A DNA stretch of 64,000 nucleotides from Alphaproteobacteria bacterium (GTDB lineage: Bacteria; Pseudomonadota; Alphaproteobacteria; RF32; CAG-239): contig JAFSWL010000044.1 in assembly GCA_017444525.1 (NCBI GenBank), positions 25,499 through 89,498 on the forward strand, written 5' to 3'. A program made the position numbers and the translations under genes. Under the pieces are notes generated by a model. It searched no databases and was not told the DNA's origin. It saw only the letters and a list, made by a program, of their open reading frames with translations. Positions 16,201 through 39,745 of this stretch are shown piece after piece. Numbering within the stretch: position 1 is the stretch's first letter; every line of letters begins with the position of its first letter.

Positions 16201-17709
16201 GTTACTTGACATCAAGCTTACGCTAACATCAGAACTTGTGGTTTGAGATGCAACTTCTTGGTATGCCTCCCAATCGGTCAAGCACTGAAGCGTTCTCGGA
16301 ACACAGATGTGATCGCGTACTTTGTCCTGAGTTTCATCGTCGAAAACAGTGATGAAATCAATGTTGCCGACAATCGAATCCTTATAGACGATCAAAGCAG
16401 GATTATCAAACTTGTAGTCAACTGCCTTTTTAGCCGGCTTATAGAGATATACAAGCTCATTGGTCTTATGCGAATAACCGACATAAGTAGCCGTAATCTT
16501 GTTCTCCAAAAGGGCCTCGGAATAACCGGCGCGCTCAGAAGTTCTTGGTGTAGCTGTTGTAGAATTTTCGTCAACACGATAGTCCTCATAATCAAAGCTG
16601 ACTTCAATATTGTCATCTTTATATGTGGCACGCTCGTGCATCAGAGAATATTCTGTTACCACCAAATCTTCAGTCGTTCCGTTTGCAAGGTCGGCAGAGT
16701 AGGTGTCGGTTTTGCGCCAGACTGTCCACTTTCCTTCCGTGCGGTTTTCCGATTCGCTTCCCTTCTTAATGCCGTTTACACGCGACAGTTTGTAGTCAAA
16801 GCTCTTGACATCCTTACTGTAGGGATCTTTGTTTCCGACTTTTCGCTTCAAGATAATAGAGACATTTTCTCGAGTTTGCTCACCTGATTTCCACGTTATA
16901 ATCTTATCGAATTTGCAACGCTCATCAGTTTCATTGATAATCTCTCGAGTTTTGTTCTCTATCTCCACTTTCTTGATGGCATCATCTTCCAGAACCGAAC
17001 GCGTTGTATACGCGTAAACCGGCAGAGTGAACGTTTCCGGATTGAGCTTATTCGTTTCCTTCAAAACGAGATCAACCTTGTATTCGGTATTGTAAACACC
17101 GGTTACATAAGAAGCACGTGTACGCGCCTTGGCTGAAATCTCGGTATTCTTCAGGTGCCGAAAATCGGCTCGTACCAGTGTTACACTGGGATAGTAGTAG
17201 ACGTTACCGCCGTACTCAACCGTATAACTGGTAATTTTGACCGGAATGCTCATAACCTGGGCATCACCGTAGCTGTGGTAGACAGTATCCAACTCTACAT
17301 CGTTGCCATCACTATCCTTTGCGGTAGCACGAGCAATTCGTTCAGAGATAGGACGAATGTCAAGCTGCTCCTTTGTGATTTGATAATCTTTGCGCGCCAG
17401 ATCGGAATAGGCATCCAAACGCGGCGGCTGTTGGTTATCGAAAACCACATCGGTTTTAACACCATCCTCGGTTCTCCAGATTTTAATCGAGGCAGTCATT
17501 TGATCACTGACTTTAGTTTTAAGCGCAGTGTCACTATAATGCCGCAATCCGGCTTCATATACGTAGCCGGCAACAACTGGAATCGCCTCACTGTCAGTGT
17601 CGGTGGTGCGAGCTGTGTCTAACGTCGCCTTTTCGCAGGCGGAAAACACCATAATGATGGCAAAAAACGCCATCATAGAAACGAAAACTTTTCTTAATCC
17701 GTTGTTCAT
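13225..17709 (-). CDS. Giant modular lipoprotein (about 1494 aa): lipobox signal, N-terminal domain, five ~180-aa repeat modules and a conserved C-terminal domain. Function unknown.
   Basis: MNNGLRKVFVSMMAFFAIIMVFSAC is a signal peptide with a lipobox Cys. Module landmarks (TDWEAYQ, TDWTAYE, TDWSSNE x2, TNWSSKE) recur about every 180 aa. The N-terminal domain, one module and the C-terminal domain are homologous to the ORF at 32402..34696. No SD; the leader is A-rich. Confidence 0.85.
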   Translation of the reverse strand: MNNGLRKVFVSMMAFFAIIMVFSACEKATLDTARTTDTDSEAIPVVAGYVYEAGLRHYSDTALKTKVSDQMTASIKIWRTEDGVKTDVVFDNQQPPRLDAYSDLARKDYQITKEQLDIRPISERIARATAKDSDGNDVELDTVYHSYGDAQVMSIPVKITSYTVEYGGNVYYYPSVTLVRADFRHLKNTEISAKARTRASYVTGVYNTEYKVDLVLKETNKLNPETFTLPVYAYTTRSVLEDDAIKKVEIENKTREIINETDERCKFDKIITWKSGEQTRENVSIILKRKVGNKDPYSKDVKSFDYKLSRVNGIKKGSESENRTEGKWTVWRKTDTYSADLANGTTEDLVVTEYSLMHERATYKDDNIEVSFDYEDYRVDENSTTATPRTSERAGYSEALLENKITATYVGYSHKTNELVYLYKPAKKAVDYKFDNPALIVYKDSIVGNIDFITVFDDETQDKVRDHICVPRTLQCLTDWEAYQEVASQTTSSDVSVSLMSSNEVAKGYWKYVNQTRRLNTVATLYDGSSKDNTWEAVVPNAFVYEREGKKHVFDNISFAATQLGGSINHSGDKDGFSIYDYSDAINVIYGDNVQRTTAPGVVKVSNNKVVGYEIRNKKLDITYERVVASLDFVTKFANGTETTDPVSKEFPRSLTVTTDWTAYESVNTENTAEPSVTLVQSSSKSEDDWTWKEETRNISAAVTLASSKQTNGWTSVDPNNIVFTRQSVTADFGKLTFTAIKVASSATLAKSEDLTDTYTYSNTISVSYGNSTTNDMQNSTAPGKIIVQKGKTVTDYEIRNPKLVVSDNDVTASLDFITKYSDGSENSEAVSKVFARSLVCNTDWSSNEVNNSELTGSASVTLKSNNKIEDGNWSYKKEIRDITTIASLAGSQQTNGWTSEDPNSITYSREGKTYTFDALSFSATEAGHSVQLTSDEATSTTYTYSDKIDVAFGGNTKSSTAPGKIVVAKTKTVTDYEIRNPKLVVSDDNVTASLDFITKYSDGTENSEAISKVFARSLVCNTDWSSNEINNSELTGSASVSLKSNNKIEDGNWSYKKEIRDITTIASLAGSQQTNGWTSEDPNSITYSREGKTYTFDALTFSATEAGHSVQLTSDEATSTTYTYSDKIDVAFGGNTKSSTAPGKIVVAKTKTVTGYEIENPKITVNQDNVTTSLTWVTLYSDGTKKTEEVNKIFNRNFKVLTNWSSKESDNSQTTGSAKVDLTSSSDKTDGYWSYTAETRSISTTAKLKGSTQENKWESKDPNKIVYTREGKTHDFGILSFSASESGASVKQKSDNINETVYSYSDKISVSYGSNSFDSSAPGTITVAKPWNPDFPDSYGKFTDVKVTASKTEGHNSWLYVVSIHFENGTLPLLIRQNASAPDAIDKSMFTSSTDSRLNSAIYITSWGKWINAIAYDASSYMSWDDTDGDNIGMLAYSTATMWGWDDGHTTSGDNKHPTVFTDKYSAKLSENNTLLTIYNKSGKVFATYKSAK
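14281..15360 (-). repeat. Two tandem 540-bp copies (exactly 180 codons each) inside the giant lipoprotein gene
   Basis: 14281.. and 14821.. align at an offset of exactly 540 bp. The first 60 nt are identical. A hand count gives roughly 43 mismatches in 540, concentrated at the module end. Confidence 0.9.
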
Positions 17710-17922
17710 AATACAGTTTTTTTTTGAATGTATGATTTTTTTTTGCAATTCATAGAGACCAAAAACAGCTGATTAAAGCTGTTTTTTGGTAAAGTTCCGT
17801 GCATATAAAATCACCTGTGAAAAGAGATAAAAAATTATCTCTTTTCGTAATTATAGGCACAATCATTATTTTTACGAAAGTCAATATAACATAACTTTAT
17901 AAAATATGCAAGATTTTTTTAT

Positions 17923-17978: not shown

Positions 17979-19283
17979 CTAATCAAATCTACGACTTTCA
18001 GTCGGTGCATAATCACTGAGAGAATTACGGTTGAGCTCTTGCTTCAATGTTTTGTCAACCTTGGGCGATTTCGGAAGCGGGAATACTTTTGCACCACCAA
18101 AATCAACAGCTTCTTCTTCCATTTGCTTTTTTCTCTCAAGCTCATGGCGCAGATGCTCTTTTTTCTTCATATCTTTTTCGGCACGTATACGAGCCAGCTC
18201 TTGCGCTTCTTCGTATTCTTTCGCCGGATGATTATACTTTATGATTGAACTTACATTCGGTGCCGGAACATGATTTGGATCAATAACCGGAGTCATACCG
18301 AAAGGCGAGAGTTGAGCCGGAGCTGCAGCAGCCGGAGTTGCGGCAGCCGGAGCGGCATAAGGCATCGGAACTGTCGGTAATGGGATAAATTGTCCGGTAT
18401 AAGCATTATAAATGTATTGACCGCCTATTTGTACAGGTTGCGCTACCGGAACCGGAGCTTGCGGCGAGCTTATTGGCGGAGTCGGTACGGTCTGTGCTTC
18501 CGGAGCAGAAACATTTGTCGGTGCTGTGGCTTGCTCCGAAAACGTATTGCCCTCGCTAATCGGAAAATCTTTAGCCTCTATAGTTACGTCGTTAGGCAAG
18601 CGCAGCATCATATAGCCGCTACCGCCGCCATAAGCCGGACCGGACAAACCAATTGAATAAAATCCACCGATATAACCATAATCCATATCAATGTAATCAA
18701 TGGCAAACATGGTTTGTATGGTGGTGGTACCGATGGTTGTCATGCGGCAGCTGTAACCGTTATCCTGAATCAAAACATTATTAACATTTTTAACATGCAA
18801 CAAAGTTTTACTCGGACGGCAAGTCGGAGTTTGACCATTATAAGTTACATTCCAGTTTAAAATCAAATTCAGAGCCATAGTATTCTGCGGACTAACTGAA
18901 ACATCGGTGATTTTTACATCATCAATATACATATAAGCCGGAGTTACGCCCACCGTAATTGGTACCGAAACATATTCTTCGGTACATGAGTGAGTTTGAG
19001 CGTTGGCCTCGCAAACCAAAGCTTTCTGTCGTGCATTGCTGTCAAATAAATGCAATAAAGTATTGAAAATATATTCCTTGGACTGAGACAATTTTGCCGG
19101 TGCGCATTGTTTGGAGCGACAAACGATAATTGAAGTCGGCATCTGTAGCTGCGGTTGTGCCGCTTGCTGTATTTGCGGCTGCGGCTGTATATTCGGCATC
19201 TGTTCGGTATACTGTGCCTGTGCTGTATGTGTGCCGACGGTAAACATACCGATAACTGTGAGAAATCCTATTTGTTTTAACAT
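17979..19283 (-). CDS. Secreted Pro/Gln/Ala-rich protein with a Lys/Glu-rich C-terminal tail. Function unknown.
   Basis: Signal peptide MLKQIGFLTVIGMFTVGTHTAQA. Low-complexity PQPQIQQAAQPQLQ and PAAATPAAAAPAQ tracts flank a globular middle region. The C-terminus is AEKDMKKKEHLRHELERKKQMEEE. Confidence 0.75.
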   Translation of the reverse strand: MLKQIGFLTVIGMFTVGTHTAQAQYTEQMPNIQPQPQIQQAAQPQLQMPTSIIVCRSKQCAPAKLSQSKEYIFNTLLHLFDSNARQKALVCEANAQTHSCTEEYVSVPITVGVTPAYMYIDDVKITDVSVSPQNTMALNLILNWNVTYNGQTPTCRPSKTLLHVKNVNNVLIQDNGYSCRMTTIGTTTIQTMFAIDYIDMDYGYIGGFYSIGLSGPAYGGGSGYMMLRLPNDVTIEAKDFPISEGNTFSEQATAPTNVSAPEAQTVPTPPISSPQAPVPVAQPVQIGGQYIYNAYTGQFIPLPTVPMPYAAPAAATPAAAAPAQLSPFGMTPVIDPNHVPAPNVSSIIKYNHPAKEYEEAQELARIRAEKDMKKKEHLRHELERKKQMEEEAVDFGGAKVFPLPKSPKVDKTLKQELNRNSLSDYAPTESRRFD

Positions 19284-25162: not shown

Positions 25163-25353
25163 TGTTCTGCCCTTAAAATCTGCCGCATCATAGCAAATAT
25201 GTCTGAAAAATCAAGAAAAAATATCGTTAATAAAAATTATAACCGAAATTGTAACAAAATATTCATATTTCTCTGCAAAAAAACACTGGAAAAAGTAAAA
25301 AAAATGTGTTAAAATCCACCTATGGTACTGGAACTTTATAAAAGGTAACTGTA

Positions 25354-26460
25354 ATGTATATATGGATATTATTGGCGACAATTATGGTGGCCTTAAGTTT
25401 TTTCAACGTTGCGCCGCGTGCCGATAAGGAACATGCGCTCAATGATATTAAGGCTGCAACCATTATAAACCGCTTTAATGCGGAACATTCTGCGCGCCTG
25501 CATACTTTGGAATGCGAAATCATATACAACAGAAATACCCAGAAAAACGGCGGAGGAGCCGGTTGGGATGGTGCCGATGGCATGCGCACAAGTTCTTATG
25601 CTCCGGTTAATGTAACCGGATATGAACCGGTTTATCAGGAATTTAATACCTATCTTCCGGTCGGATATTTAACCGGCAACAAAAAGAAAGACGGCAGCGG
25701 CAGCAATTATGCTACCGGTAACATGAAACAATTTGTTTATTGTCTGTCTCTGTCGGCCGAAGAAGACGCCGGTTCCAAACCGGATAGCGAAGTTTTTATC
25801 GCTTGCGATGCTCAGGATGATGCGCGCACCAAAAATATCGGTGAGCACCGCTATTTAGTTTCATTTGCTCCGATTCCGGAAAGGTGGCTGTCTAAAGATG
25901 GTAATCTTACGCCTTTGCCGACATTTGTTAATTTGTTATCGAATACCAGTGGCCGAGCAGCTTCTTTCGGTTGGCTCGAATATGTTGACGGCAAACCTAA
26001 ATTACATGGCGTAGGGGCAGCCGCTACGCGTGCCATCAGACTCCGAGAGAAAAGTCATACCTTTGATGATGAGCATAAAGACCGGTTTGAACAGCGTCTG
26101 GATGAAAATTACAACTACAAAGCAGATTTAAGCAGTAAACAGGCCGGTCACGAAAAACTGGTGGCGGAGAATATTTTGATTTCCGAAAATTCCGCTATAT
26201 GGCGTAATTCTGAGCTTGATGTGTGCAAAACAAAACCCTGTATGTTTGCTTATGAAGTATTTCCCAAAACCGATCCCGCATGTCATTGCTACAATATTTT
26301 GGAAAACTATTACGGTAGGGATCGCTTGAATTTAGCTCAGTGCTATAATGATACAAAGCATACGGAAATTGAAAACAATGATAAAATTAATGTCTTTAAG
26401 GATGAGACACTTAAAGACAGAGAATTAAGATATAAAAAATTTGAAAGTTATTTGAAGTAA
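25354..26460 (+). CDS. Bitopic membrane protein (368 aa), first gene of the giant pilin-like operon. Function unknown.
   Basis: The N-terminal anchor MYIWILLATIMVALSFF is followed by an AP...helix-like segment. The C-terminal part is Cys-rich. There is a stop codon 5 codons upstream in frame, so no hidden leader. A 34-nt gap separates it from the next gene. Confidence 0.7.
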   Translation: MYIWILLATIMVALSFFNVAPRADKEHALNDIKAATIINRFNAEHSARLHTLECEIIYNRNTQKNGGGAGWDGADGMRTSSYAPVNVTGYEPVYQEFNTYLPVGYLTGNKKKDGSGSNYATGNMKQFVYCLSLSAEEDAGSKPDSEVFIACDAQDDARTKNIGEHRYLVSFAPIPERWLSKDGNLTPLPTFVNLLSNTSGRAASFGWLEYVDGKPKLHGVGAAATRAIRLREKSHTFDDEHKDRFEQRLDENYNYKADLSSKQAGHEKLVAENILISENSAIWRNSELDVCKTKPCMFAYEVFPKTDPACHCYNILENYYGRDRLNLAQCYNDTKHTEIENNDKINVFKDETLKDRELRYKKFESYLK

Positions 26461-26494
26461 TATAACCGAATAAAGTGAATTAAGGAGAACGCTG

Positions 26495-29400
26495 ATGAAA
26501 AAGTTTAATAATAAATCCGTACTGGAGCGAGGTGGCTTGATGATAGAAGCCTTAGCCATGCTTGGTTTGATAGCAGTGGTTACCCCGACCATGTATAAAA
26601 AATCCGCGGAGAGGACGATGGAAGTTGAGGATATCAATACCGCGACTTCAATGCGCACGATTATGGGGGCGGCTGAATCATATATGTCATCTAATTACAA
26701 CGACATTATGAAAGTTATGGAAGAAGATACTTCGCATCAGCACACTATATCGGGCAGAAAAATCGGCGTTATGGATATTCCGATGGCGGATTTGACTCCT
26801 TATTTGCCTTATAAATTTAATGAAGAAGGTGAGCTATATAATTATAAGTCTCCGAAGATTCGTATTGTTCGTGCCGGTGACAATTTAACGGCGTTTGCAC
26901 TGTTTCCGGCTAAGGTAGACGGTGAACACGGCATCGGTCAAGAAAGAACGGTGCGTATAGCTTCACTTATCGGGGCTAACGGCGGTTATATCTCCAGCAA
27001 AGAAAATGAAGCCAAGCAAGCACGCGGTGTCGGCGGTGTGTGGAATTTGGACGGAGATTATTATTCAGCTGTATTTAACGGTGTTGAAACAGATAATCAA
27101 AATCAGTACTCTTTGGTTACATCTTCTTCCAATGTGGTTAATGGTGCCAATGCTATGGCAGAATCGGATCCGACTCAGTTTGTACAACGTACTAAACAAG
27201 AAGGTTCGGGCTGGCGCAATGCGATGCGTACTGATTTATATATGGGATCGGGGCCGGATAGCGCGCAAGATCCGGATGACCGCGAGCATCAAGATGACTT
27301 TTTCAGTATTTATAACGTGAATGAGATGATTATCGGTGCAGATCGTGATGCCAAACAAGAATTGCTTAAGGCTGTCAGAAATGAACCGGAAACCGCATTC
27401 AGTGCTGATCCGAGTAGCTATGGCTTATATGTAGCCGGCAGCGGTTCCAGAGGAGAGGGCGCCGGTAATGCTTATATCAAAGGTACATTGATTGCCGCCG
27501 GTAACAGATTGTGGGCCGGCAATGAAACACTTAAATATACAGGTACTAATCTGGAATTTGACGGCACTAACTTTAAAATCGGCAAAAATCAGACAGATGC
27601 CAGTAAAGATGCAGATAATTATGTTATGTCCGGTCATGCTGAAAAGGGTAAGAGCACACTTGATATTATGGGAGATAAAATTAATGTTGCGGAAGCCGGA
27701 GATATCGGGAACTATAAGCCTAAAAATGATGTTCAGAAGAAAGCAAATGTAGTAGTACATACTACCAACAAAGATACTCATACAACCGGAACGGTAAATC
27801 CTCCTGCATATTCAGCTGACAGCAAAGCACCGGATTTTGGCGTTGATATTGACGGCAATATGGTGGTTGAAGGTGTGTTGGCGGCAGGTCAGCTCGATGT
27901 TAACAACATCCGTACGGCTAATATTTCCGTAGGTTCGGAAAATATTGACGATGAATATAAGTGGATGGATGTTGATAAAAACGGTGTACACGTTCACCAG
28001 CCGGCAAGCGGTGCCTATAAAGGTACGCAGATTGAAGCGCGTGACAAACTTATTACCATGCGTGTCGGTTCAGATAATGCAATTGATAAAAATACCGACA
28101 GCAATGGTGTAGAGGCAGATAACGCGGCGCAAATCATCATGGATGGTGCAGATGCCGCAAATGGCAGTATTATCCAAAAGGTTAAGGGAACTAACGGCAA
28201 AATAGCGTTGGCCAACGACAATTTGGGCATCAATATAAAAAATCGGGCCATTACCATCGGCAATACCGATGCCGCCGGCACCACAAAAGATGATGCGACG
28301 CAATACTTTGTTGGTTTCGGCAAAGGCGGTAATATTCACATGACAAACAGCAATTTGAAAATTTCTGATGCCAACAATAATGCTTTGTTTACCGTCCGTG
28401 GTCTTGAGGATAGTAAAGAAGATCAAGGAATTGTTGATAATACAACGCGCAACAGTAGCCCGTATAACATCGCCGCACACGGCAACATCCTGTTTACGGA
28501 TGGACTGAATAATGGCAATTCCAGAGCTCGATATTTAGCAATGTCCAATAATGGAGACGGATTTGCGGCGGTAAACATTATCAAAGGAGATGCTGACGGT
28601 ACTATAAACACTGCCGGAACCGGTGTTGTGTATATTGATATGGATACAGGCAGCGAGAGCGCTTCTATGCAGGCTGTCAGTGGCACAGACTATCAAATAA
28701 AAGATGCCGGAGGCACGGTAAGGAGAAATGTTCAAGGAGGCTCAATTTATATTCGAAAGGGCTTGATTGATGTTGTGCCGGATAAGAACAATATCGGCCA
28801 AGTTGCTAAAACTCGCAATAATACCACCGGAGAGCTTACGGGGGTTACTGTTACTGGCGGCAATGACACTGCCGATCAAGGTAGGGGCGTTATTCGAGCC
28901 AGCCGCTTTGTGGCCAATAACATAACAACCGAAGGAAATCCGGTTAAAGTTCCGGCTTTCTTCACTCAAGCTAAATTGGAAGAATACAGCGGTTCCGGAA
29001 CAAATCGTTATGATACCTATATGGTTAATCCGGCCTATACGTCGGTGATGAACGATATTAAATTGGTGTCGCGCGGCGGCGCTCGTTTGAGCGATATTTT
29101 GCCGACGTTTATCACCAAAGGTATTTATACGGCTAAAAACAACTATTCCGAATTGGCTTTCCATGGCGACACCAGCGGTTCCGGCTCAAGCGGTCATGGC
29201 GTGTCGTTGGAACCATCCAACTTATTCTTAAAAGCGGATGGTACACTTAATATATATCAGCCGAGAACCGGATATACAAGTGATCCGGCCTCGCCGATTA
29301 TTGGTGTGGTGCCGGCTCCGCAGTGTCCTCCGGGATATGCGCGTATGATTACGGTTACTCCGGCCAGTATTCGTATGGCGGAAGCCGGTCGTTTCCGCAA

Positions 29401-30718
29401 CCCGTCGCCGAGCAGCTTTAACGGTTATAAAATAGACGTTGACAGCTTTACCGATCCGACCAACCAAGATTATATCACATACGAAGGGAAGAATTATGAC
29501 TTGGATGACCTCAATAATATGAGAGATGAGAATGGAAATGTTGTTTCCTTGCCGGATAGCGTTAAGCAAAATATGGGACAATCGGTGCAGTTATATAACA
29601 CTTATATCAATAGTGAATCTGCCGGTATACGCGATATGCGCCGCGCCAATCCGTCTTATAAAACCGGTGTCCACATGACCGGCGGGGAAGAATGCTTTAA
29701 TTGGGGGGCTGACGGCGAATGCTTGGATAGTAATCACTACGGATATAAGATGGAAATGCACGTCGCTGAAGCCGGAGACATTGATAAAAACAGAAATGAA
29801 AATAAGGTTCATGATTCCCATGATTCAACCATGGGGCAAACCAATGTAATTAATGTACCGGCATCTTCTTCCTCAGTCTGGAGCTCATATAAGGAAGACG
29901 GTTACGGCGATAAAGGAGGTACGGTTTACCATAGCGGCAATACGAATGCCAGCGGCAAATATAAAGCCAATATCGTTAAAGATAAAGTAACCCTTTCGAT
30001 AATGGACAGAGATGAAGACGGTAATGTGTTATGGACCGACCATGCTGTAACCAATGAAATTGATATGTCGGATACCCGCTTATTGGTAGATCGTATCAAA
30101 AACGTCTCCTTTGAAGATAGAGACGGGGCTCCGACGTATGTACTTACTTCCGGCAATGCCGATGCATTTGCACCGATTACTTTCCAAAAGAGTACGTGGT
30201 TGAAAACGGCAGCTATTCCGGTAGCTAAAACGACAGTTAGCGACACGCAACGTCAAAGTGCTTACGCTTCCGGTTGGGCAATTTTAATGGGCTTTTTATA
30301 TCCGCAACATGGTTATCGCAATGTGTTGAATACATTGGGATTTGACGTTGCCAATAGTTATCAAACTTATCCAATGTATGAGGATGATGGTGAAAACTAT
30401 ATTGGCGGATTTAACAGTAGAAAAGCGAAGGAGCGTAATTTTAGAGTCAGCCCTAGCAGTCCTAAAGACGATTATTTCTTCTGGAATATATTTCCGGTTG
30501 AACAAGAGAGCTTGGAAGCATTTATTACCACTTATTGCTACTTTGACCAAGATAATAAGGCATTCAAACAGTTTAACAGCAGTGAGGAGGTTAAAGATCA
30601 CTTGCCGATGATTGATTATATTACAACGTTCCCGAGCGGTTATGAACCGGAAGGACATAATAAGAATTATCGTAAACTGTTGAACGACCCGTCAATGAAG
30701 TATAACGAATTGTGGTAA
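26495..30718 (+). CDS. Giant (1407 aa) protein with a prepilin-type N-terminal signal and pilin-like N-terminal domain
   Basis: AAGGAG RBS. N-terminus MKKFNNKSVLERG|GLMIEALAMLGLIAVVTP has a short basic leader, Gly, Glu at +5 and a hydrophobic helix. This is the same G-x-x-M-I-E pattern as the 184-aa pilin at 41243..41797. A ~1170-aa Gly/Asn/Asp/Thr-rich extension follows. Confidence 0.8.
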   Translation: MKKFNNKSVLERGGLMIEALAMLGLIAVVTPTMYKKSAERTMEVEDINTATSMRTIMGAAESYMSSNYNDIMKVMEEDTSHQHTISGRKIGVMDIPMADLTPYLPYKFNEEGELYNYKSPKIRIVRAGDNLTAFALFPAKVDGEHGIGQERTVRIASLIGANGGYISSKENEAKQARGVGGVWNLDGDYYSAVFNGVETDNQNQYSLVTSSSNVVNGANAMAESDPTQFVQRTKQEGSGWRNAMRTDLYMGSGPDSAQDPDDREHQDDFFSIYNVNEMIIGADRDAKQELLKAVRNEPETAFSADPSSYGLYVAGSGSRGEGAGNAYIKGTLIAAGNRLWAGNETLKYTGTNLEFDGTNFKIGKNQTDASKDADNYVMSGHAEKGKSTLDIMGDKINVAEAGDIGNYKPKNDVQKKANVVVHTTNKDTHTTGTVNPPAYSADSKAPDFGVDIDGNMVVEGVLAAGQLDVNNIRTANISVGSENIDDEYKWMDVDKNGVHVHQPASGAYKGTQIEARDKLITMRVGSDNAIDKNTDSNGVEADNAAQIIMDGADAANGSIIQKVKGTNGKIALANDNLGINIKNRAITIGNTDAAGTTKDDATQYFVGFGKGGNIHMTNSNLKISDANNNALFTVRGLEDSKEDQGIVDNTTRNSSPYNIAAHGNILFTDGLNNGNSRARYLAMSNNGDGFAAVNIIKGDADGTINTAGTGVVYIDMDTGSESASMQAVSGTDYQIKDAGGTVRRNVQGGSIYIRKGLIDVVPDKNNIGQVAKTRNNTTGELTGVTVTGGNDTADQGRGVIRASRFVANNITTEGNPVKVPAFFTQAKLEEYSGSGTNRYDTYMVNPAYTSVMNDIKLVSRGGARLSDILPTFITKGIYTAKNNYSELAFHGDTSGSGSSGHGVSLEPSNLFLKADGTLNIYQPRTGYTSDPASPIIGVVPAPQCPPGYARMITVTPASIRMAEAGRFRNPSPSSFNGYKIDVDSFTDPTNQDYITYEGKNYDLDDLNNMRDENGNVVSLPDSVKQNMGQSVQLYNTYINSESAGIRDMRRANPSYKTGVHMTGGEECFNWGADGECLDSNHYGYKMEMHVAEAGDIDKNRNENKVHDSHDSTMGQTNVINVPASSSSVWSSYKEDGYGDKGGTVYHSGNTNASGKYKANIVKDKVTLSIMDRDEDGNVLWTDHAVTNEIDMSDTRLLVDRIKNVSFEDRDGAPTYVLTSGNADAFAPITFQKSTWLKTAAIPVAKTTVSDTQRQSAYASGWAILMGFLYPQHGYRNVLNTLGFDVANSYQTYPMYEDDGENYIGGFNSRKAKERNFRVSPSSPKDDYFFWNIFPVEQESLEAFITTYCYFDQDNKAFKQFNSSEEVKDHLPMIDYITTFPSGYEPEGHNKNYRKLLNDPSMKYNELW

Positions 30719-30735
30719 TCGTTTGAACCTGAAAA

Positions 30736-30768
30736 ACACCGACGGGAAATCCGCCGGTGTTTTTCTTT
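30736..30768 (+). terminator. Rho-independent terminator of the giant pilin-like gene
   Basis: ACACCGACGG-gaaat-CCGCCGGTGT followed by TTTTTCTTT. Confidence 0.8.
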
Positions 30769-30770
30769 GA

Positions 30771-31240
30771 TATTACCGTCATCGCTCGTGTGGAGTGCTG
30801 TATATAATATTATCGCCATCGCTCGTTCGGCATAGTTTATTATAATACTGTCATACCTCAATAATATATTATTGTCATCGCTCGTTCGGCGCAAGTCCGA
30901 ACGTCAAGCGATCTTCCGTATTGTTCTTCCCCTTACGAGGAAGAGGAATGAGGGGATAATATACTTCCTTACTCAATGCACTTTCCTTGAAGAATATTAA
31001 AAAATGATTTGAAGATCCATTGACCTCACTTAGTTCGGAGGGATGACCATTTGGTTTTATAACAAAAACGTCATGCCTCGATTCCGACAGGAATCGTCCA
31101 GGCATCTTCCGATTTAAAAAACAATGATTCGAAGATGACTTTATTATTTTGACGCATTCGCTTACGGCTCAGCGAGGGATAACTTTATATTTTAATACAT
31201 TCGCCTACGGCAAAGCAAAGGATGATCATTTGCTTTTAAA
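30771..31240. repeat. ~470-bp non-coding tract of degenerate hairpin-forming GTCAT-type short repeats in both orientations
   Basis: Three direct copies of TATTAyyGyCATCGCTCGT at 30771, 30808 and 30868. Hairpins at 30877..30912 (ATCGCTCGTTCGG/CCGAACG..AGCGAT) and 31068..31105 (ATGCCTCGATTCC/GGAATCG..AGGCAT). Paired copies CATTCGCTTACGGC / CATTCGCCTACGGC occur near 31153 and 31197. An inverted GTCATCCCTCCGAAC copy lies near 31030. Confidence 0.7.
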
Positions 31241-31298: not shown

Positions 31299-32162
31299 TC
31301 ACTTACTTGGAGACTGGTATGGACGCATGTCATTACGCATGTTCCACACGTCAGCTTTTGTATACCCTCTAGCATCCATTGCCTGAGTATTATACGAAGC
31401 ATGGCGCATGATACGGATGCGTACGCCAGCGTAAATACCACCCTGTCCGAACACCTTGTTGGTATTCAGAACGATGTTCTGCTGAACGCCATAGTGGACG
31501 CCAGCGAACACGCTGACGGGACTAAACTTGAAGTTATGGAAAAACTCCAAAAACCCGTACACTCCACTGGTAAACTCGCGGATATCGAGATCCGATGTTG
31601 TCTTAGTGGTTGTCGTAGTTATTCCATCAGGCGTTGTCTCCTTCCCAGTCCATGTCGCCTTTTCCTGGTCAAGGAATGACGATAGCTGGAAGGTATAGGC
31701 AGCTCCCAGTTTAATACCTGAGTGGTGGTTGTTCCACTGCAGGATTTTACCTGAGATGCGCAGCTCCGTCTGGAACTGCAAAAATGCGTTCTGCCTGTCG
31801 CTCTCCGCGTCTTCTACGGCCTTACGGATGACCTCGCGGACATCCGCAGTCCAAACACGTCCCTCATAACCAAAGGACGCACCACCACCATACGTGGTGT
31901 TTCCGGCGAAGGTTCCGACATCTCCGTGAAAATCCAGATACCAACCGTGGTTGTCCACGTCGTAATATATTGTCGGTTCGAGGTTGTTACCCTCGAACTT
32001 TTTAATTTCGTCACGGTGCGGCCCCTTGTGGCGGAGCTCGTGATGGTAGTTATACTTCACCGACTCCGATACAGGAGCGAACTCCATATCGGAAATCTCA
32101 ACCTGAGCATTTGCGCTCATTACCATTACCATCATTGCGGCGGCTGCCATATATCTTTTCAT
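31299..32162 (-). CDS. Secreted protein, putative outer-membrane beta-barrel (287 aa)
   Basis: Signal peptide MKRYMAAAAMMVMVMSANAQ. Alternating Gly/aromatic segments (GASFGYEGRVW, KLGAAYTFQL, GVYGFLEFF, VFAGVHYGV, GIYAGVRIRI). No SD; the A-rich leader shares the ACAWTCAAAAAAA motif. The beta-barrel call is tentative. Confidence 0.65.
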   Translation of the reverse strand: MKRYMAAAAMMVMVMSANAQVEISDMEFAPVSESVKYNYHHELRHKGPHRDEIKKFEGNNLEPTIYYDVDNHGWYLDFHGDVGTFAGNTTYGGGASFGYEGRVWTADVREVIRKAVEDAESDRQNAFLQFQTELRISGKILQWNNHHSGIKLGAAYTFQLSSFLDQEKATWTGKETTPDGITTTTTKTTSDLDIREFTSGVYGFLEFFHNFKFSPVSVFAGVHYGVQQNIVLNTNKVFGQGGIYAGVRIRIMRHASYNTQAMDARGYTKADVWNMRNDMRPYQSPSK

Positions 32163-32401
32163 ATTTTTTTTGTTTTTTTGATTGTGAATAAATTTGTTGG
32201 TTTCCCTCGGGGTGCGTCTTGCAATCATCATACGGCACAGCCGCTCTATCCCTCACACGCCGCGCTGCGGAATGCTTGGCAATAATCATGATTGATGCAA
32301 AGAACGCCCCTCGAGGTGCCAAACTTAAAAAAAATTACATATCCATGGGGAGGAAATCGCACGGACACGTCCGCACACTATCGACCCCATGCGGGGAAGA
32401 G

Positions 32402-34696
32402 TTATTTCCAAGAACCCATGTAGGTACCAGGGTAGGTGTCTGTAGCCGTAAGACGACCATCGGATACCTGCAGATTATACCTAGAGGTAGAAGTAGAACA
32501 ATGACCATTTACGAAATGACCTTCGTCCCAATTCTGAGACTTGGCGTTCTTATAGTCCTTGTTAGCCTTCTCTTTACCATCCCTAGACCAAGTCATCTGA
32601 GAGACCTGATCTGAAGCAATAGTGTTAATCCATACGTTCTCAGCTTCCTGATAGGTTGCTGAGTTGAAGTCGTGATTCGAGGTGTACTCGAAGTACTCAA
32701 ATGCCCAGCTAGGCACTCTTGCACCTGACTTCACAACTACTGGAAGAACACCCTTCTCGAAATGGAGAGACCAGATATACACAAAGCCATCGTGGCTCAT
32801 GTTGTTTGATACGGTCTGCTTTACTTCGAGAAGATCGCCCCACTCACGGGGGAAGAATCTCTCCTCCTCTGGTATCGGAGCAGCGGACTTCACCTTAATG
32901 GTGCCGTTGCCGGTAGAGGACTTGACACTACTTCCCCAGACGTACTTCAATACGTCCGAGTAGGGATAGTTAGTATAGTTTCCTTCAGTTACCCCGTTGC
33001 CGAGGTTGTCAGTATTGCTTACATTGAGGGTATTAGCCTCAAAACTGAAGGTCTTATCACGGTATGTGCAAGAGAAATTTGTAGGCTCCACTGAGCTCCA
33101 CTTATTCTCCTGCTGGCTACCATTAAGGGTAGCGATACTAACCAAGCTACGAGTCTCGCGACTCCACTTAGCCTCAGCCCCTTCGAGTGTCTTAGATACA
33201 GGCTCAGTTGAGGTTACAGTAACATTTACCCCACTGGTGGAGTATTTGTTATTCAGTTCCTCACTGCTCCATGCACCAAGATTTCTCAGAATGCGAGAGT
33301 CTGAGAAATCAAACTTTACTCTCTCCTGCCCTCCATCTGAGTAGTTGATGACATACTCAAGATGCCAGTTGACCTTATCATCAGATAGGGTCTCTGTACA
33401 CTTAGATTTGTCCCAACCCTCGCTCGTGACGTGGGCATTCTCCTTGAGAAGCACAACAGACTCCGAAGCATCCTGGGCATAGCCGAGGTAGCTTGTGGAG
33501 ATGCTATTATGCAGTCTCTTAGCGGTGTAACCGCCGCGTGGAGAATTAATGTCTTCCTCGTAAGTATTTCTCTCACGGGGATTCCAGTTTTCAAAATCAA
33601 AGGTATGCTTGAGACCGAACTTGGTGTTAGCAAATTCGGCTTTCTCATGATACAAACCATAAGACGTGTTAACCGGAGCGACATTATTCGAGAGGACTCC
33701 GCTGAAAGTATCGGTGCGACCCGACACAGTCCAGTTCTCGTCCTTGCTCACCTGAGAGATACCTCCTATAGACAAGGGGTTGTCAGACAACCAGTTGTAA
33801 CCAAACGCGGTCACAACCTTCTCATACTCGTCGATCGTTTCGATGCGGCGGTTGAGAACCTTACTATAGGTCTGCTCGTGCTTCGAGCCGTCCTTCTTCG
33901 TCCATTCGATGACGATATCGCACCTTTCGGTGGTCTCGTCAAGTGGATTACGATCATAACTCAGGATCTTGCCAGAGACGATGTCATTCTCCTCGAGCTG
34001 GTATACACGTATTGTATCGCCCAATGTAACTGGGAACACGACATTCTTGTCGTAGTTCTCAATTTTACACTGAGCCTTCCATACGAAACCTCTGCACACA
34101 GAATCGGTGATAACCATCTCACCGCGGGTACCGTACTTGGTGGTACCGGGGAGCTGGTTAATAGCCTCTAAGTAAGGCTCACCTATTTTGACGTAGGGAG
34201 CATCGTAATTCTTACCATTGATAGTGCGCACGATGCGCTCCATCTTGCGCTGGCAGTAAACGATATTTCCGTCCTCTACGTCAGAGGTCGTCTTACCAGA
34301 GTCCTCATAGACCTTGCGGTCGTCAGAGGAAGACTTCGTCGAAGTCTGCATTGCTCCGTGTGATGTGCGCTCCTGCGAGTAAGCAAGAGAGACTGTCTTT
34401 GGACCAGCATACTTGTCGTTCTGGTGCCAACAAGAAATGTTGGCACGACCAGTATCACTGATCTTGTTGTTGCCGTCTTTGACTGTATATTCGATATCAA
34501 CGTCGGCGGTTCCGTCGTTGATAATAATATACGTGACATCCCAATCGGGAGTGTCATCCACCGGCACAACCGGCTCTGAATCTTTCTCGGATGTAGTTGA
34601 CATGTTGTTTGTCAACTTCTCGCACGAAGCGAGACCGAAACATACTACCATGGCCAGCAAGAACATGCCAGCGAGGTTCATAAAACTCTTTCCCAT
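32402..34696 (-). CDS. Modular lipoprotein (764 aa), the single-module paralog of the giant lipoprotein at 13225..17709
   Basis: MGKSFMNLAGMFLLAMVVCFGLASC has a lipobox. Blocks ETTERCDIVIEWTKKDG, ENWTVSGRTDTFSG, one AWSSEELN module and the C-terminal FVYIWSLHFEKGVLPVVV align with ETDERCKFDKIITWKSG, GKWTVWRKTDTYSA, the TDWSSNE modules and WLYVVSIHFENGTLPLLI of the 1494-aa protein. Confidence 0.85.
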   Translation of the reverse strand: MGKSFMNLAGMFLLAMVVCFGLASCEKLTNNMSTTSEKDSEPVVPVDDTPDWDVTYIIINDGTADVDIEYTVKDGNNKISDTGRANISCWHQNDKYAGPKTVSLAYSQERTSHGAMQTSTKSSSDDRKVYEDSGKTTSDVEDGNIVYCQRKMERIVRTINGKNYDAPYVKIGEPYLEAINQLPGTTKYGTRGEMVITDSVCRGFVWKAQCKIENYDKNVVFPVTLGDTIRVYQLEENDIVSGKILSYDRNPLDETTERCDIVIEWTKKDGSKHEQTYSKVLNRRIETIDEYEKVVTAFGYNWLSDNPLSIGGISQVSKDENWTVSGRTDTFSGVLSNNVAPVNTSYGLYHEKAEFANTKFGLKHTFDFENWNPRERNTYEEDINSPRGGYTAKRLHNSISTSYLGYAQDASESVVLLKENAHVTSEGWDKSKCTETLSDDKVNWHLEYVINYSDGGQERVKFDFSDSRILRNLGAWSSEELNNKYSTSGVNVTVTSTEPVSKTLEGAEAKWSRETRSLVSIATLNGSQQENKWSSVEPTNFSCTYRDKTFSFEANTLNVSNTDNLGNGVTEGNYTNYPYSDVLKYVWGSSVKSSTGNGTIKVKSAAPIPEEERFFPREWGDLLEVKQTVSNNMSHDGFVYIWSLHFEKGVLPVVVKSGARVPSWAFEYFEYTSNHDFNSATYQEAENVWINTIASDQVSQMTWSRDGKEKANKDYKNAKSQNWDEGHFVNGHCSTSTSRYNLQVSDGRLTATDTYPGTYMGSWK

Positions 34697-34778
34697 ATAA
34701 TGTGATTTTTTTGAATGTAATTTTTTTCTTTTTAAACGGTTCATCTCGCTTATGAAAATCCTCAACTCGTGAAAATCT

Positions 34779-36958: not shown

Positions 36959-38029
36959 ATGGCTAAAACAGAACTCATAGGACTGAGTAAAGAAGAATTG
37001 CAAAAGGCTTTGACCGATATCGGGGAAAAGCCTTTTCGTGCAAAACAGCTTTGGCAGTGGCTTTATTATTTTGGCGAAACCGATTTTGCAAAAATGAGTA
37101 ACCTTTCAAAAGTTCTGCGCACCAAGCTCGCCGAAAATTTTACCATTACCCGTCCTAAAATCGTAACCGAGCAACTGTCTTCGGATAAAACTCGTAAATG
37201 GTTGCTTGAATTTGCCGACGGGCAGCGTGTGGAAATGGTTTATATTCCGGAAGAAGACAGAGGCGCAGTATGTATTTCGACACAAGTCGGATGCGCAGTA
37301 GGGTGTCGATTTTGCCATACAGGCAGCCAGAAGCTTACTCGTAATTTAACCGCTGGAGAAATCGTCAGTCAGTTTATGGTGGCGCGCGATACATACGGCG
37401 AATGGCCGAGTCCCACCAACGAAACGCGCTATCTCTCCAATATAGTGGTTATGGGAATGGGGGAGCCGCTGCACAACATTGAAAATACCATTAAAGCTCT
37501 AAATATTTTAACCGACGGCGAGGGGATAGCCATATCACGCCGCCGTGTTACTATGTCTACTTCAGGTATTGCGCCTAACATCGTACGTGCGCTCAGAGAA
37601 ACCGGAGTGCGTTTGGCGGTGTCGCTGCATGCGCCGAACAATACTTTGCGTTCTGAGATTATGCCGATAAACAATCGTTATCCGTTGGAAGAAGTGCTTT
37701 CTGCTTGTCGGGAATATCAGGGTAACGATGGCAGCCGCTACATTACGTTTGAATATCTGATGCTTGACGGTGTCAACGACTCGTTTGAGTGTGCGCACGA
37801 GCTGATTGCTTTGATGAAGAAATATGACCTGCGAGCCAGTTTTAATCTGATTCCGTTTAATCCGTGGCCGGGATGTATCTTTAAGCCAAGCTCAAATAAT
37901 CGGGTTCATGCCTTTGCCCGCGAATTGGAAAAGGCCGGTTTTGCCGCACCAGTGCGCGTGGCACGCGGACAAGATATTTTAGCGGCTTGCGGCCAATTAA
38001 AATCCAAAAAAGAGCAAGAGACTAAATAA
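36959..38029 (+). CDS. rlmN: 23S rRNA (A2503-C2) / tRNA methyltransferase RlmN (radical SAM)
   Basis: FRAKQLWQWLY and CISTQVGCAVGCRFCHTG (CxxxCxxC) are typical RlmN sequence. Confidence 0.95.
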   Translation: MAKTELIGLSKEELQKALTDIGEKPFRAKQLWQWLYYFGETDFAKMSNLSKVLRTKLAENFTITRPKIVTEQLSSDKTRKWLLEFADGQRVEMVYIPEEDRGAVCISTQVGCAVGCRFCHTGSQKLTRNLTAGEIVSQFMVARDTYGEWPSPTNETRYLSNIVVMGMGEPLHNIENTIKALNILTDGEGIAISRRRVTMSTSGIAPNIVRALRETGVRLAVSLHAPNNTLRSEIMPINNRYPLEEVLSACREYQGNDGSRYITFEYLMLDGVNDSFECAHELIALMKKYDLRASFNLIPFNPWPGCIFKPSSNNRVHAFARELEKAGFAAPVRVARGQDILAACGQLKSKKEQETK

Positions 38030-38648
38030 GTCCGATTTTCTGCGCTGTAATCACGGCCTGTGTGCGATTGCTGACATGAAGTGAGCGTAGCAGAGCGTTT
38101 ATATGCAGCTTAACCGTTGATTCGGAAACCCCCATATCATACGCAATTTGCTTATTTGACTTGCCTTGTGCAATCAAGTCAAGAACTTGAGACTGCCGCG
38201 TAGTCAGGGTTTTAATGCCGATATTACGAGAGCTTAACGCATTAATCGGTGTATTTTCCAACAGATTCGGCGGAACGTAGTTGCCTCCTTCAATAATCAG
38301 CCGCAACGCATTATTAAAAACCTTAACTTCCGAACGCTTAGGAATATATCCCTTAACACCGGTAGCGAGAATGGTGCGGATAGTACGGCTGTCTTCGGAG
38401 GCAGAAACCACGATTATTTTCATTTTAGGAGCCATGGCATGAATTTGTTTTAAACTTTCAAGCCACGGCATATCTTGCATTTCTACGTCCAGCAACAATA
38501 CGTCAATCTGCGATTCTGTGTTCAGAATTTTAAATACCTGCGAATATCCGGAAGCCTGTAAGATAACGGCATCAGGGACTATTTCTTCCAGTCGCAGGGC
38601 CAGTCCGTCGCGAAACAACGCGTGATCGTCCGCAATCAGAATTTTCAT
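38022..38648 (-). CDS. NarL/FixJ-type response regulator (REC plus LuxR HTH), orphan
   Basis: MKILIADDHALFRDG...LLLDVEMQDM...TTRQSQVLDLIAQGKSNKQIAYDMGVSESTVKLH. GAGGAG RBS before the ATG at 38648. No adjacent kinase. Confidence 0.88.
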   Translation of the reverse strand: MKILIADDHALFRDGLALRLEEIVPDAVILQASGYSQVFKILNTESQIDVLLLDVEMQDMPWLESLKQIHAMAPKMKIIVVSASEDSRTIRTILATGVKGYIPKRSEVKVFNNALRLIIEGGNYVPPNLLENTPINALSSRNIGIKTLTTRQSQVLDLIAQGKSNKQIAYDMGVSESTVKLHINALLRSLHVSNRTQAVITAQKIGLI

Positions 38649-38741
38649 GTACAATCTCCTCTTAGTTTTAGCCATGTAATCGGTCATTTATATATTGCCG
38701 ATTATACATATTTAAAGACGTTCAAGAGAATAGTTGCAAAT

Positions 38742-39203
38742 TTATTTTTTAGGCAGTTCAATATATTTAACACCGGCTTCGGAAAACATCTCCGCCGAAT
38801 AGCGCAACTTGTCGCGCCAAGTATTTTTCGGATCATTAATATCGGATTTATATTCGTATGTAACCACTTCTTTGATACCGGCTTGAATAATGGCACGAGC
38901 GCAATCGGTACAAGGTGTCAGCGTACAAAACATGGTGCAGCCTTTCAGGCAAGTTCCGGTCAGACAAGCATTAAAAATCGCATTGCGTTCGGCATGTTCA
39001 AAAAAATCATACTTAGTCGGACGCTCCAACCGTTCCGGTATGCCGTCAACCACCCCGCGGACAAAGCCATTATAGCCGGTGGCACGAATTTCCTTATCCG
39101 GCCCCACCACTACTGCACCTGTCTTTGTCGACGGGTCTTTCGACCAAGTTGATATCAACTCGGCAAGCTCCAAAAAGCGATAATTCCATTTTTCCGAAAA
39201 CAT
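38742..39203 (-). CDS. Deoxycytidylate (dCMP) deaminase / ComEB-like cytidine deaminase-fold protein
   Basis: HAERNAI and TLTPCTDCA zinc-binding motifs. AGGAA RBS before the ATG at 39203. Confidence 0.85.
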   Translation of the reverse strand: MFSEKWNYRFLELAELISTWSKDPSTKTGAVVVGPDKEIRATGYNGFVRGVVDGIPERLERPTKYDFFEHAERNAIFNACLTGTCLKGCTMFCTLTPCTDCARAIIQAGIKEVVTYEYKSDINDPKNTWRDKLRYSAEMFSEAGVKYIELPKK

Positions 39204-39740: not shown

Positions 39741-39745
39741 AAGAT

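Follow-up and report, generated by a model that had tools for sequence, protein, structure and literature searches.

In the 64,000-nt stretch of DNA analyzed here (the window), a two-gene operon encodes a 1407-aa protein that we read, with a probability of roughly 0.6, as a giant PilV-family type IVb minor pilin displayed at the pilus tip by the mechanism proposed below. The protein is probably a very large pilus-tip adhesin, and the pilus assembly motor was not found in the loci searched. The initial annotation had proposed a giant pilin-like adhesin candidate, and PilV homology supports this interpretation; we infer the adhesin part from homology and architecture.

The operon comprises the gene of a 368-aa partner protein and the gene of the giant protein, 34 nt apart, with a strong terminator at its end (Table 1); both the coordinates and the gap had been given correctly by the initial annotation. 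The 3' arm of the terminator stem continues into the U-rich tract UUUUUCUUU. The promoter-like site is weak evidence, as such sites in the region were no more numerous than in shuffles. Within the window, the neighbors of the cassette are sufBCD and orphan surface proteins, and its surroundings are housekeeping genes, the suf operon and, ~14 kb off, the dnaA region.

At least 106 species of Alphaproteobacteria, all uncultured and from gut and rumen, carry the two-gene cassette, which therefore behaves as a core chromosomal trait. MAGs with the cassette include RUG10918, with 92% identity across the N-terminal 450 residues, GCA_023665325.1, and GCA_031271345.1. In 72 of the 77 loci bearing the giant gene, the partner gene immediately precedes it on the same strand, and the flanking genes differ between loci while the cassette stays together. 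Family matches of 270-490 aa were considered as small relatives and rejected, as they were truncated fragments.

Table 1. Features of the two-gene operon and the pilin gene of the window.
Feature	Coordinates	Strand	Basis or remark
Promoter-like site TGGAAA-17-TAAAAT, TG before -10	25287..25315	+	~40 nt 5' of partner gene; consensus scan only
Partner gene, 368-aa leaderless bitopic protein	25354..26460	+	ORF
RBS AAGGAG of the giant gene	26482..26487	+	read from sequence; 7 nt before the second ATG
Giant gene, 1407 aa	26495..30718	+	ORF
Class III (prepilin) leader, residues 1-13	26495..26533	+	MKKFNNKSVLERG; ends in invariant Gly-1
PilV-like pilin module, residues 14-251	26534..27247	+	alpha-1 helix (residues 14-66, Glu+5 = E18) and alpha/beta head
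Partly acidic, low-confidence linker, residues 252-339	27248..27511	+	AF2 and conservation
Beta-rich, G/N/D-rich stalk region, residues 340-840	27512..29014	+	includes conserved block 451-510
Most conserved part outside the N-terminus, residues 841-960	29015..29374	+	TYMVNPAYTSVMNDIKLVSRGGARLSDILP ... PAPQCPPGY
Hypervariable, indel-rich region, residues 961-1200	29375..30094	+	alignment
Conserved C-terminal domain, residues 1201-1407, and stop codon	30095..30718	+	ends in invariant LNDP..Y.E.W
Intrinsic terminator hairpin closing the two-gene operon	30731..30765	+	dG -20.4 kcal/mol, z -5.1
PilS/Bundlin-type type IV major pilin, 184 aa	41243..41797	-	PF08805 E 3e-21; PF05307 E 1e-10

Prepilin-type N-terminus and PilV-like module

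The giant protein starts with MKKFNNKSVLERG/GLMIEALAMLGLIAVVTP, where the slash marks the predicted cleavage site. The 13-aa leader has a net charge of +3 and Gly at -1, and the mature end begins with GLMIE, placing Glu at +5. Gly-1 and Glu+5 occur without exception in a set of 111 distinct N-termini from the family, position +1 is G, S, or T, and no variation is seen at 22 of the first 35 mature positions; this conservation argues that the motif of the giant protein did not arise by chance. It also bears out the prepilin-type N-terminus (basic leader, Gly, Glu at +5) read by the initial annotation. The family leaders vary in sequence and in length (6-19 aa, nearly all 9-19) and have a mean net charge of +3.4. 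Additionally, the leader register of the giant protein matches that of the PilS-type pilin encoded in the window, MKINESG/RSMIE. Residues 12-34 form the sole hydrophobic segment, and AlphaFold2 (AF2) predicted one helix over residues 6-66, running from the leader through mature residue ~53.

The scan for the N_methyl signature (PF07963, TIGR02532, IPR012902) proposed by the initial annotation was run, and the giant protein had no match even at E<=10. Taken by itself, this counts against the pilin model; however, the PilS-type pilin from the same window, used as a control for TIGR02532, also scored below the cut-off (12.8 versus 16.3 bits), and the negative result is therefore uninformative. 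Pfam and NCBIfam searches with the full protein and its fragments reached no pilin model and no other model. A Flp/Tad-type pilin was first weighed for its LIAVV resemblance and was rejected, as position +6 is Ala and not the Tyr of the G/xxxxEY motif of Flp/Tad (type IVc) pilins and TadE/G pseudopilins, no match to PF04964, PF07811, or PF13400 was obtained, and the affinity to PilV/PilS was clear.

Judged by sequence comparison, the first ~250 residues are a divergent PilV (Shufflon_N) pilin module, with a homology that is significant past the helix as well. The hhalign comparison with the Yersinia ruckeri pYR4 PilV resulted in 96.5% probability (E 7e-10) over residues 12-191. The blastp comparison with PilV picked only this ORF in the window, with 27.7% identity over 249 aa (E 2e-7), and pYR4 PilV matched 53 family genes in tblastn, with a best E of 7e-9. 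When 72,556 plasmids were searched by tblastn, all 15 listed records were annotated as pilV tip adhesin, at 27% identity over residues 10-250. Two relatives (L009 and L077) scored 29.8 and 29.9 bits against Pfam Shufflon_N (PF04917), above the threshold of 27.5, whereas the window protein alone remained below this threshold because it is too divergent.

The AF2 model displays an alpha/beta head domain up to about residue 220, with 10-residue block-mean pLDDT values mostly of 81-93 over residues 21-210. The pilin-like head domain of ~200 aa that had been described from the layout of the sequence is thus corroborated by the model and by the PilV homology, and it can be named as PilV-type. Foldseek searches of the two AF2 models against the PDB returned nothing significant, the best pilin-related match being a type II secretion system (T2SS) pseudopilin at E 0.98; the top matches (phage tail spikes, MORN repeats, and the T2SS pseudopilin), with E values of 0.15-1, were set aside. 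The family profile had no match among PDB sequences at E<=10.

Extension and partner protein

The rest of the protein, ~1150 residues, is predominantly beta, has no match among known folds, families, or domain signatures, and contains no detectable repeats. The linker is moderately conserved, and most of residues 221-336 had pLDDT values under 50, which a few short stretches slightly exceeded. The stalk region was modeled as a run of short strands with block-mean pLDDT of ~50-85. Gly, Asn, and Asp account for 11.8, 10.1, and 9.3% of residues 238-840 versus 6.7, 6.0, and 6.2% in the window proteome. The Gly/Asn/Asp enrichment claimed for the extension therefore stands, but the G-x-N/D segments occur at the frequency predicted by composition (15 versus 13.8 expected). 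As self-BLAST also found no internal repeats in the giant protein, the beta-helical or repetitive fold suggested by the initial annotation is without sequence-level support.

Beyond the stalk, column identity reaches 91% over residues 841-870 and 64% over residues 931-960, and AF2 confidence is low for residues 843-870. Alignment occupancy then falls to 7-49%, with identity below 10%, over residues 991-1200, and the hypervariable region is 23-45% identical in homologs that are 53-59% identical overall. The C-terminal domain was modeled as mixed alpha/beta with pLDDT of 55-88. The C-terminal AF2 model overall has a mean pLDDT of 62, and this moderate confidence counts against the pilus-tip reading. 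Such an alternation of conserved blocks with a hypervariable, indel-rich region would be expected of a ligand-binding surface protein.

The partner protein has a single hydrophobic segment, residues 1-22 (MYIWILLATIMVALSFFNVAPR), and the rest is an extracytoplasmic, Cys-containing domain. The protein starts with MYIW, and a stop codon lies four codons upstream, so that no leader is possible. These results confirm the leaderless, pilin-helix-like anchor that had been noted for the partner, and its operon pairing is conserved across the family. Residues M1, Y2, A8, T9, N18, C291, and C296 are invariant. No Pfam match was obtained in 38 members, and similarity to any pYR4 pil protein was not found. 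A weak collinear similarity to the pilin module of the giant protein (hhalign P 0.004), based on the shared order of the motifs LPvGY, YxVSFAxIP, and GW, hints that the partner may be a degenerate paralogue of this module.

Pilus genes and alternative readings

The window does encode one pilus component, the PilS/Bundlin-type pilin listed in Table 1, which the initial annotation had overlooked. This pilin starts with MKINESG/RSMIEMLGVLAIIGVLS, in the same G/xxMIE register as the giant protein, and is likely the fiber subunit beneath the tip protein. The clade pilins matched pYR4 PilS with an hhalign probability of 95.7%, and the PilS-type family was located at <=10 kb from the cassette in 11 loci. 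The window pilin has at least 7959 homologs among the 8000 candidates sharing most words that were scored; the sources shown are all Alphaproteobacteria MAGs or unnamed metagenomes, and some of the proteins are named "type 4 pilus major pilin". A24 prepilin peptidase (PF01478) genes were found 3 kb downstream of the cassette in two loci (L022 and L037). The peptidase has 714 homologs, several of them named "MAG: prepilin peptidase [Alphaproteobacteria bacterium]"; such peptidases are common in the clade, and none is encoded in the 64-kb window itself.

No assembly ATPase, platform, secretin, or alignment protein was found in the window or in ~1.5 Mb of loci of ~80 related genomes. Assembly genes were sought by Pfam scans of the window ORFs down to a length of ~100-150 aa, by Walker-A and A24 motif scans in six frames of 86 loci, by tblastn with twelve pYR4 pil proteins, in the neighborhoods of two pilin paralogues and four peptidase orthologues, and by extension of the window edge, and none of these searches found any. 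One T2SSF-like tblastn match in L047 (75 aa, E 0.002) was judged spurious, as it lies within a 325-aa ORF unlike a platform protein. The initial annotation was thus right that the window holds no ATPase, platform, secretin, or prepilin peptidase. As to the machinery of the genome, on which it had made its own reading depend, peptidase genes and PilS-type pilins are present in the clade, whereas the ATPase, platform, and secretin were not located.

The lack of a secretin or extension ATPase gene near any cassette, pilin, or peptidase gene would favor a processed pilin-like protein that is never extruded on a long pilus and instead serves in a short periplasmic pseudopilus or as an inner-membrane anchor, envelope-spanning or secretion-related as in type II secretion. 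The very large size of the extension (~1150 aa) points in the same direction, and the best pilin-related Foldseek match, although not significant, was a T2SS pseudopilin. In the pilus model, a folded extension of ~120 kDa would need to pass through a secretin. We nevertheless consider a non-extruded protein unlikely, because the protein is homologous to PilV in particular, which is a pilus adhesin, and occurs together with pilins of the PilS/Bundlin type. The hypervariable, indel-rich region also speaks for a surface that is exposed and under diversifying pressure, and non-pilin tip proteins of ~1200 aa (PilY1 and MshQ) ride type IV filaments (PMC13533445). Similarly improbable, in our view, is a true pilus tip protein that mediates contact between bacteria (mating-pair stabilization, DNA uptake, or aggregation) and not adhesion to host or mucus. 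All characterized PilV proteins serve to recognize recipient cells when conjugation takes place in liquid and in the gut (PMC9045228), and the organisms inhabit dense gut and rumen communities; however, conjugation genes, a relaxase, and a shufflon recombinase are absent from the window and from the conserved neighborhood, and the cassette sits amid housekeeping genes as a core trait of many species.

Very improbable is an ordinary uncleaved signal anchor that tethers a surface or periplasmic protein unrelated to pili. The missing N_methyl/TIGR02532 match and the lack of a significant structural match to pilins would fit such an anchor, but the former is shared by the PilS-type pilin of the window. 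Moreover, an anchor of this kind does not account for the invariant Gly-1 and Glu+5, the latter a charged residue within a hydrophobic helix, or for the significant PilV homology past the helix.

Comparison with known pilus proteins and proposed mechanism

Experimental work has established PilV as an adhesin among the type IVb minor pilins; its N-terminus is constant and its C-terminus variable (PMC9045228), and NCBI annotates it as a pilus tip adhesin. Its systems are the type IVb thin pili of IncI1/IncI2 (R64, R721, and TP114) and pYR4 (Pfam Shufflon_N, PF04917). The giant protein shares with PilV a prepilin leader ending in Gly, a constant N-terminus with a variable distal part, and a homologous alpha-1C and head with the motifs YLPxGF, LxAFxL, IAxxIGxxGGY, and AxGxGGxW; PilV works with a PilS-family major pilin, and a PilS-type pilin also occurs in the window. 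However, the giant protein has 1407 aa, whereas PilV has ~415-460 aa, that of TP114 consisting of a 345-aa constant part and 69-113 variable residues (PMC9045228). Position +5 is Glu in the giant protein and Ser in pYR4 PilV. Plasmid pilV is the last gene of the pilL-pilV operon (cf. the pYR4 operon), whereas the giant gene is chromosomal, lies outside any pilL-pilV operon, and is accompanied by a gene dedicated to a leaderless partner, for which the plasmid PilV systems have no counterpart. No rci recombinase was found among its neighbors, and no sfx or matching inverted repeats at its 3' end. The giant protein is therefore a very large, shufflon-less variant within the known PilV kind.

Other tip proteins resemble the giant protein in part. 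CofB (ETEC CFA/III) and TcpB (Vibrio cholerae TCP) also carry additional beta-rich domains behind a pilin module, and both are tip-located and initiate assembly (PMC8179133, PMC13533445); however, they are ~500 aa long, form homotrimeric tips, and have no such partner gene, and a sequence or fold match to the giant protein was not detected. Modular type IV pilins, with Streptococcus sanguinis PilB and PilC as examples, display a functional module on the filament by joining it to an N-terminal pilin module, and the most extreme multi-domain case in a survey has 860 residues (PMC8179133), whereas the extension of the giant protein alone has ~1150 residues and matches no known domain signature. 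PilY1/PilC and MshQ are comparable in size (~1100-1200 aa) and in presumed tip location and role (PMC13533445), but they are non-pilin proteins that carry a Sec signal and attach to minor pilins by beta-strand addition, whereas the giant protein has a prepilin-type N-terminus, carries its own pilin module, and lacks the PilY1 beta-propeller (PF05567) according to Pfam.

The analysis shows the signal motif, the homology to PilV, the operon and its conservation as a cassette, the pilin of the window, and the peptidase in relatives; cleavage, pilus incorporation, tip location, adhesion, and the role of the partner are inferred, as follows. The class III signal would insert the giant protein into the inner membrane, and an A24 prepilin peptidase would cleave it after Gly13. 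The mature alpha-1 helix, with Glu+5, and the PilV-like head would then dock it into a type IVb pilus of PilS-type major pilins, one gene for which sits 10.5 kb from the giant gene. As a low-abundance priming subunit, the giant protein would come to lie at the pilus tip, with its beta-rich extension pointing outward in the order stalk, conserved hinge, hypervariable region, and conserved C-terminal domain. The extension may bind a target, e.g., host or mucus glycans or other microbes, much as the variable C-terminus of PilV sets target specificity. The membrane helix of the partner resembles an already-processed pilin helix without Glu5; the co-transcribed partner would most likely pair with the giant protein to form a tip or initiation complex of two proteins, where it may be the topmost cap; alternatively, it might keep the extension export-competent.

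Only tentatively do we extend this proposal to a previously unrecognized two-protein pilus tip, in which a leaderless, Glu5-less, and never-processed cap would sit atop a 1400-residue PilV-type pilin; such pilins might be the largest type IV pilin class, and the organelle might be central to colonization in an order of uncultured Alphaproteobacteria from gut and rumen.

If the giant PilV-type pilin reading is true, type IV pilins can bear extensions of more than 1100 residues, at about three times the size of PilV and beyond the 860-residue extreme of the survey. A plasmid-type mating adhesin lineage would then have been adopted as a chromosomal, shufflon-free surface organelle in a group of gut and rumen Alphaproteobacteria that has no representative in culture. 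With its strictly conserved partner that lacks a leader, the cassette makes it possible to test whether a pilin-like protein can bypass prepilin peptidase, and the hypervariable region, as the likely ligand-binding determinant, would be useful for understanding how these abundant, unstudied commensals attach.

The two-gene unit and its family

The 1407-aa protein (the giant) and the 368-aa protein before it (the partner) are encoded by co-oriented ORFs separated by 34 nt, which bears out the coordinates of the initial annotation. The 3' arm of the hairpin closing the unit enters a U-rich tract, and sufB, sufC, and sufD lie upstream on the opposite strand. The GC content is ordinary (0.42 in the first gene and 0.44 in the second, against 0.42 in the window). 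The 580 nt of intergenic DNA that follow the giant gene contain an element of ~30 nt in three direct copies, whose core ATTATYGYCATCGCTCGTTCGGC has 2 exact matches in the window against 0 expected. The giant gene and the gene for the 310-aa protein are convergent.

Features of the window discussed in the text
Feature	Positions	Strand	Details
ORF without Pfam family	55-3321	-	1088 aa
Orphan protein	13225-17748	-	1507 aa
ORF without Pfam family	17979-19283	-	434 aa
Promoter-like site, weak	25287-25315
Partner ORF	25354-26460	+	368 aa; ORF call
Giant ORF	26495-30718	+	1407 aa; ORF call
AAGGAG		+	7 nt before giant start; in sequence
Hairpin closing the unit	30731-30765		dG -20.4 kcal/mol, z -5.1
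Copies of ~30-nt element	30765-30890
ORF without Pfam family	31299-32231	-	310 aa
Orphan protein	32402-34765	-	787 aa
Enolase - dCMP deaminase - GerE trio	38022-41175		within 36959-41175
PilS/Bundlin-type type IV major pilin	41243-41797	-	184 aa; PF08805, E 3e-21
dnaA, dnaN, recF	42398-46205	-

At least 721 homologues of the giant were found, and those with a source name are all hypothetical proteins from uncultured Alphaproteobacteria or Pseudomonadota. The nearest relative, RUG10918, shares 92% identity across the N-terminal 450 residues. We scanned one genome per species and obtained 106 encoding stretches. Every locus kept is from an uncultured rumen or gut MAG, and nearly all of these MAGs carry the label Alphaproteobacteria; the few other taxon labels look like mis-binning. 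The giant gene was present in 77 of 82 loci, and the partner was immediately upstream on the same strand in 72 of these 77, upholding the proposed pairing. The gap lay between -89 and +97 nt with the exception of one locus, the negative values arising from ORF calls that begin ahead of the true start. Apart from the pair, a PilS-type pilin was the only recurrent neighbour (11 loci), and all other flanking genes differed.

A search of 1.84 billion representative proteins with the N-terminal module returned 385 proteins at E<=1e-3, of which 252 reached E<=1e-10; almost all measure 930-1470 aa. Five short matches were read and rejected as small relatives, since they end abruptly and are fragments; the giant format is thus the rule for this branch.

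The window encodes many surface proteins. The two large orphan proteins are mutually related, match no Pfam family, and have N-termini that look like lipoprotein signals; a 1485-aa homologue (4169-8626) is the divergent neighbour of the two genes at the related locus L002. The N-termini of the 434-aa and 310-aa ORFs resemble signal peptides. One ORF in 48361-63940, probably the 1047-aa ORF at 60797-63940 (-), matched the Autotransporter beta-domain, and OMP_b-brl, Opacity, and Surface_Ag_2 were also matched in this region. The dnaA, dnaN, and recF genes, with a cumulative GC skew peak near 30-32 kb, suggest that the window may lie close to a replication landmark.

Prepilin signal and pilin module of the giant

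The giant starts with MKKFNNKSVLERG, with a predicted cut after Gly13, followed by GLMIEALAMLGLIAVVTPTMYKK; residues 12-34 are its sole hydrophobic segment. Among 111 distinct N-termini out of 197 family sequences, Gly-1 and Glu+5 never vary, the +1 residue is Gly, Ser, or Thr, and of the first 35 mature positions 22 are unchanged in all, in line with the prepilin-type N-terminus proposed initially. Leaders differ in both sequence and length, with a range of 6-19 aa (almost all 9-19) and a mean net charge of +3.4. More distant branches read QTG/SMMIEA and QRG/TLLVEA, which places -1 at the first of the two Gly in the window's 'GG'. These sequences identify the N-terminus as a class III (prepilin) signal. 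The suggested scan with N_methyl-type models gave no match to the giant, a result that weighs little because the genuine pilin of the same window is likewise under the TIGR02532 cut-off.

AlphaFold2 (78-sequence alignment) predicted one helix at residues 6-66, comprising the leader and 53 mature residues, and then an alpha/beta domain that extends to about residue 220 (for residues 21-210, block-mean pLDDT is mostly 81-93), in agreement with the pilin-like helix and head already described.

The only Pfam match among 32 family members was Shufflon_N (PF04917, E 3e-5), the family of PilV, the minor pilin and tip adhesin of IncI/R64-type type IVb pili. When N-terminal 400-residue fragments were submitted, two relatives exceeded the gathering score (29.8 and 29.9 vs 27.5 bits), two further relatives reached 22 and 15 bits, the PilV control reached 325 bits, and the window giant had no score. 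With tblastn, giant residues 1-250 matched 47 records among 72,556 plasmids (27% identity over residues 10-250, E 0.03), and all 15 plasmid records among the matches listed are annotated 'shufflon system plasmid conjugative transfer pilus tip adhesin PilV'. In the reverse search, PilV of Yersinia ruckeri pYR4 matched 53 giant genes in related loci (best E 7e-9) and, among the window ORFs, the giant alone (27.7% identity over 249 aa, E 2e-7). Profile-to-sequence hhalign aligned giant 12-191 with PilV 12-173 (96.5% probability, E 7e-10, 155 columns), and the motifs YLPxGF, LxAFxL, IAxxIGxxGGY, and AxGxGGxW are common to the giant family and PilV. By this homology, the giant head is a PilV module.

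Extension and partner

The extension had been described as rich in Gly/Asn/Asp/Thr, with many G-x-N/D segments suggestive of a beta-helical or repetitive fold. Gly, Asn, and Asp are indeed enriched in residues 238-840; however, G-x-N/D motifs there are no commoner than composition predicts, and no internal repeats were detectable in the extension. AlphaFold2 modelled the extension largely as short beta strands, at moderate confidence (mean pLDDT 62), and Foldseek, a PDB sequence profile, and Pfam recognised nothing in it. In the family alignment, conservation along the giant is mosaic: blocks 451-510, 841-870 (91% column identity), 931-960, 1201-1290, and 1321-1407, the last ending in invariant LNDP..Y.E.W, are conserved, 541-780 is variable, and 961-1200 is the most variable and indel-rich. 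Differences from the closest relative, L004 7591-11763 (93% identical overall), cluster in residues 121-240 (pilin head) and 1201-1320, which hints at localised diversification or recombination.

The partner starts with MYIWILLATIMVALSFF, and a stop codon four codons upstream means that it cannot have a leader, as first noted. A single hydrophobic helix at its N-terminus, in which M1, Y2, A8, and T9 are invariant and Glu5 is lacking, is followed by a helix-breaking N-x-S-P-R-x-D, a predicted amphipathic stretch, and a domain with conserved Cys pairs. This predicted layout is that of a pilin needing no processing. Neither a Pfam match (38 members) nor similarity to any pYR4 pil protein was found. 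A relaxed profile-profile alignment placed the partner collinear with the giant pilin module, with three motifs in the same order (P 0.004, probability 9%); such kinship is a weak lead only.

Pilus genes and the PilV-type reading

The window was said to lack pilus assembly genes. This held for the ATPase, platform, secretin, and peptidase, but a PilS-type pilin gene had gone unnoticed. The pilin starts with MKINESG/RSMIEMLGVLAIIGVLS (MKINESG/RSMIE...), with G-1 and E+5 in register with those of the giant, and adjoins the recF-dnaN-dnaA block. Clade pilins matched pYR4 PilS with 95.7% probability. The family has at least 7959 matches (scoring was limited to the 8000 candidates with most words in common); the source names among the matches listed are all Alphaproteobacteria MAGs or unnamed metagenomes, some members are named 'type 4 pilus major pilin' by NCBI, and a single MAG carries four or more copies. 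Two species have genes for an A24 prepilin peptidase (PF01478, E 3e-16) at a distance of 3 kb downstream from the two-gene unit; several of the 714 homologues are named 'MAG: prepilin peptidase [Alphaproteobacteria bacterium]'.

The pilus genes of the clade are scattered among housekeeping genes: pilin genes adjoin dnaK/dnaJ, lon, secA, or recF, and the peptidase gene adjoins groES-groEL or comes after enolase, deaminase, and response regulator. The latter arrangement occurs in relatives L087 and L090 (7300-10702), after an enolase - dCMP deaminase - GerE response regulator trio; the window keeps the trio, with rlmN in the peptidase's place. No assembly ATPase, platform, or secretin was found in about 1.5 Mb of related DNA, and this negative result is the main gap in the pilus argument.

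The best-supported reading is that the giant is a PilV-type minor pilin of a PilS-type pilus. TP114 PilV has a 345-aa constant part and 69-113 variable residues choosing the target cell (PMC9045228). In contrast, the giant is three times larger, has no shufflon, is chromosomal and outside any pil operon, retains Glu+5, and comes with a dedicated partner gene. The protein singled out as most extreme in a survey of modular pilins has 860 residues (PMC8179133); PilY1 and MshQ are tip proteins of comparable size but not pilins, and CofB and TcpB form type IVb tips (PMC13533445).

The prepilin signal and PilV-module homology support the initial interpretation of a pilin-like adhesin candidate; adhesion, tip location, and the partner's role we infer. 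In this reading, the A24 peptidase would cleave the giant, which would be incorporated as assembly starts and carried to the tip of the PilS-type pilus, where its extension may serve as the binding organ.
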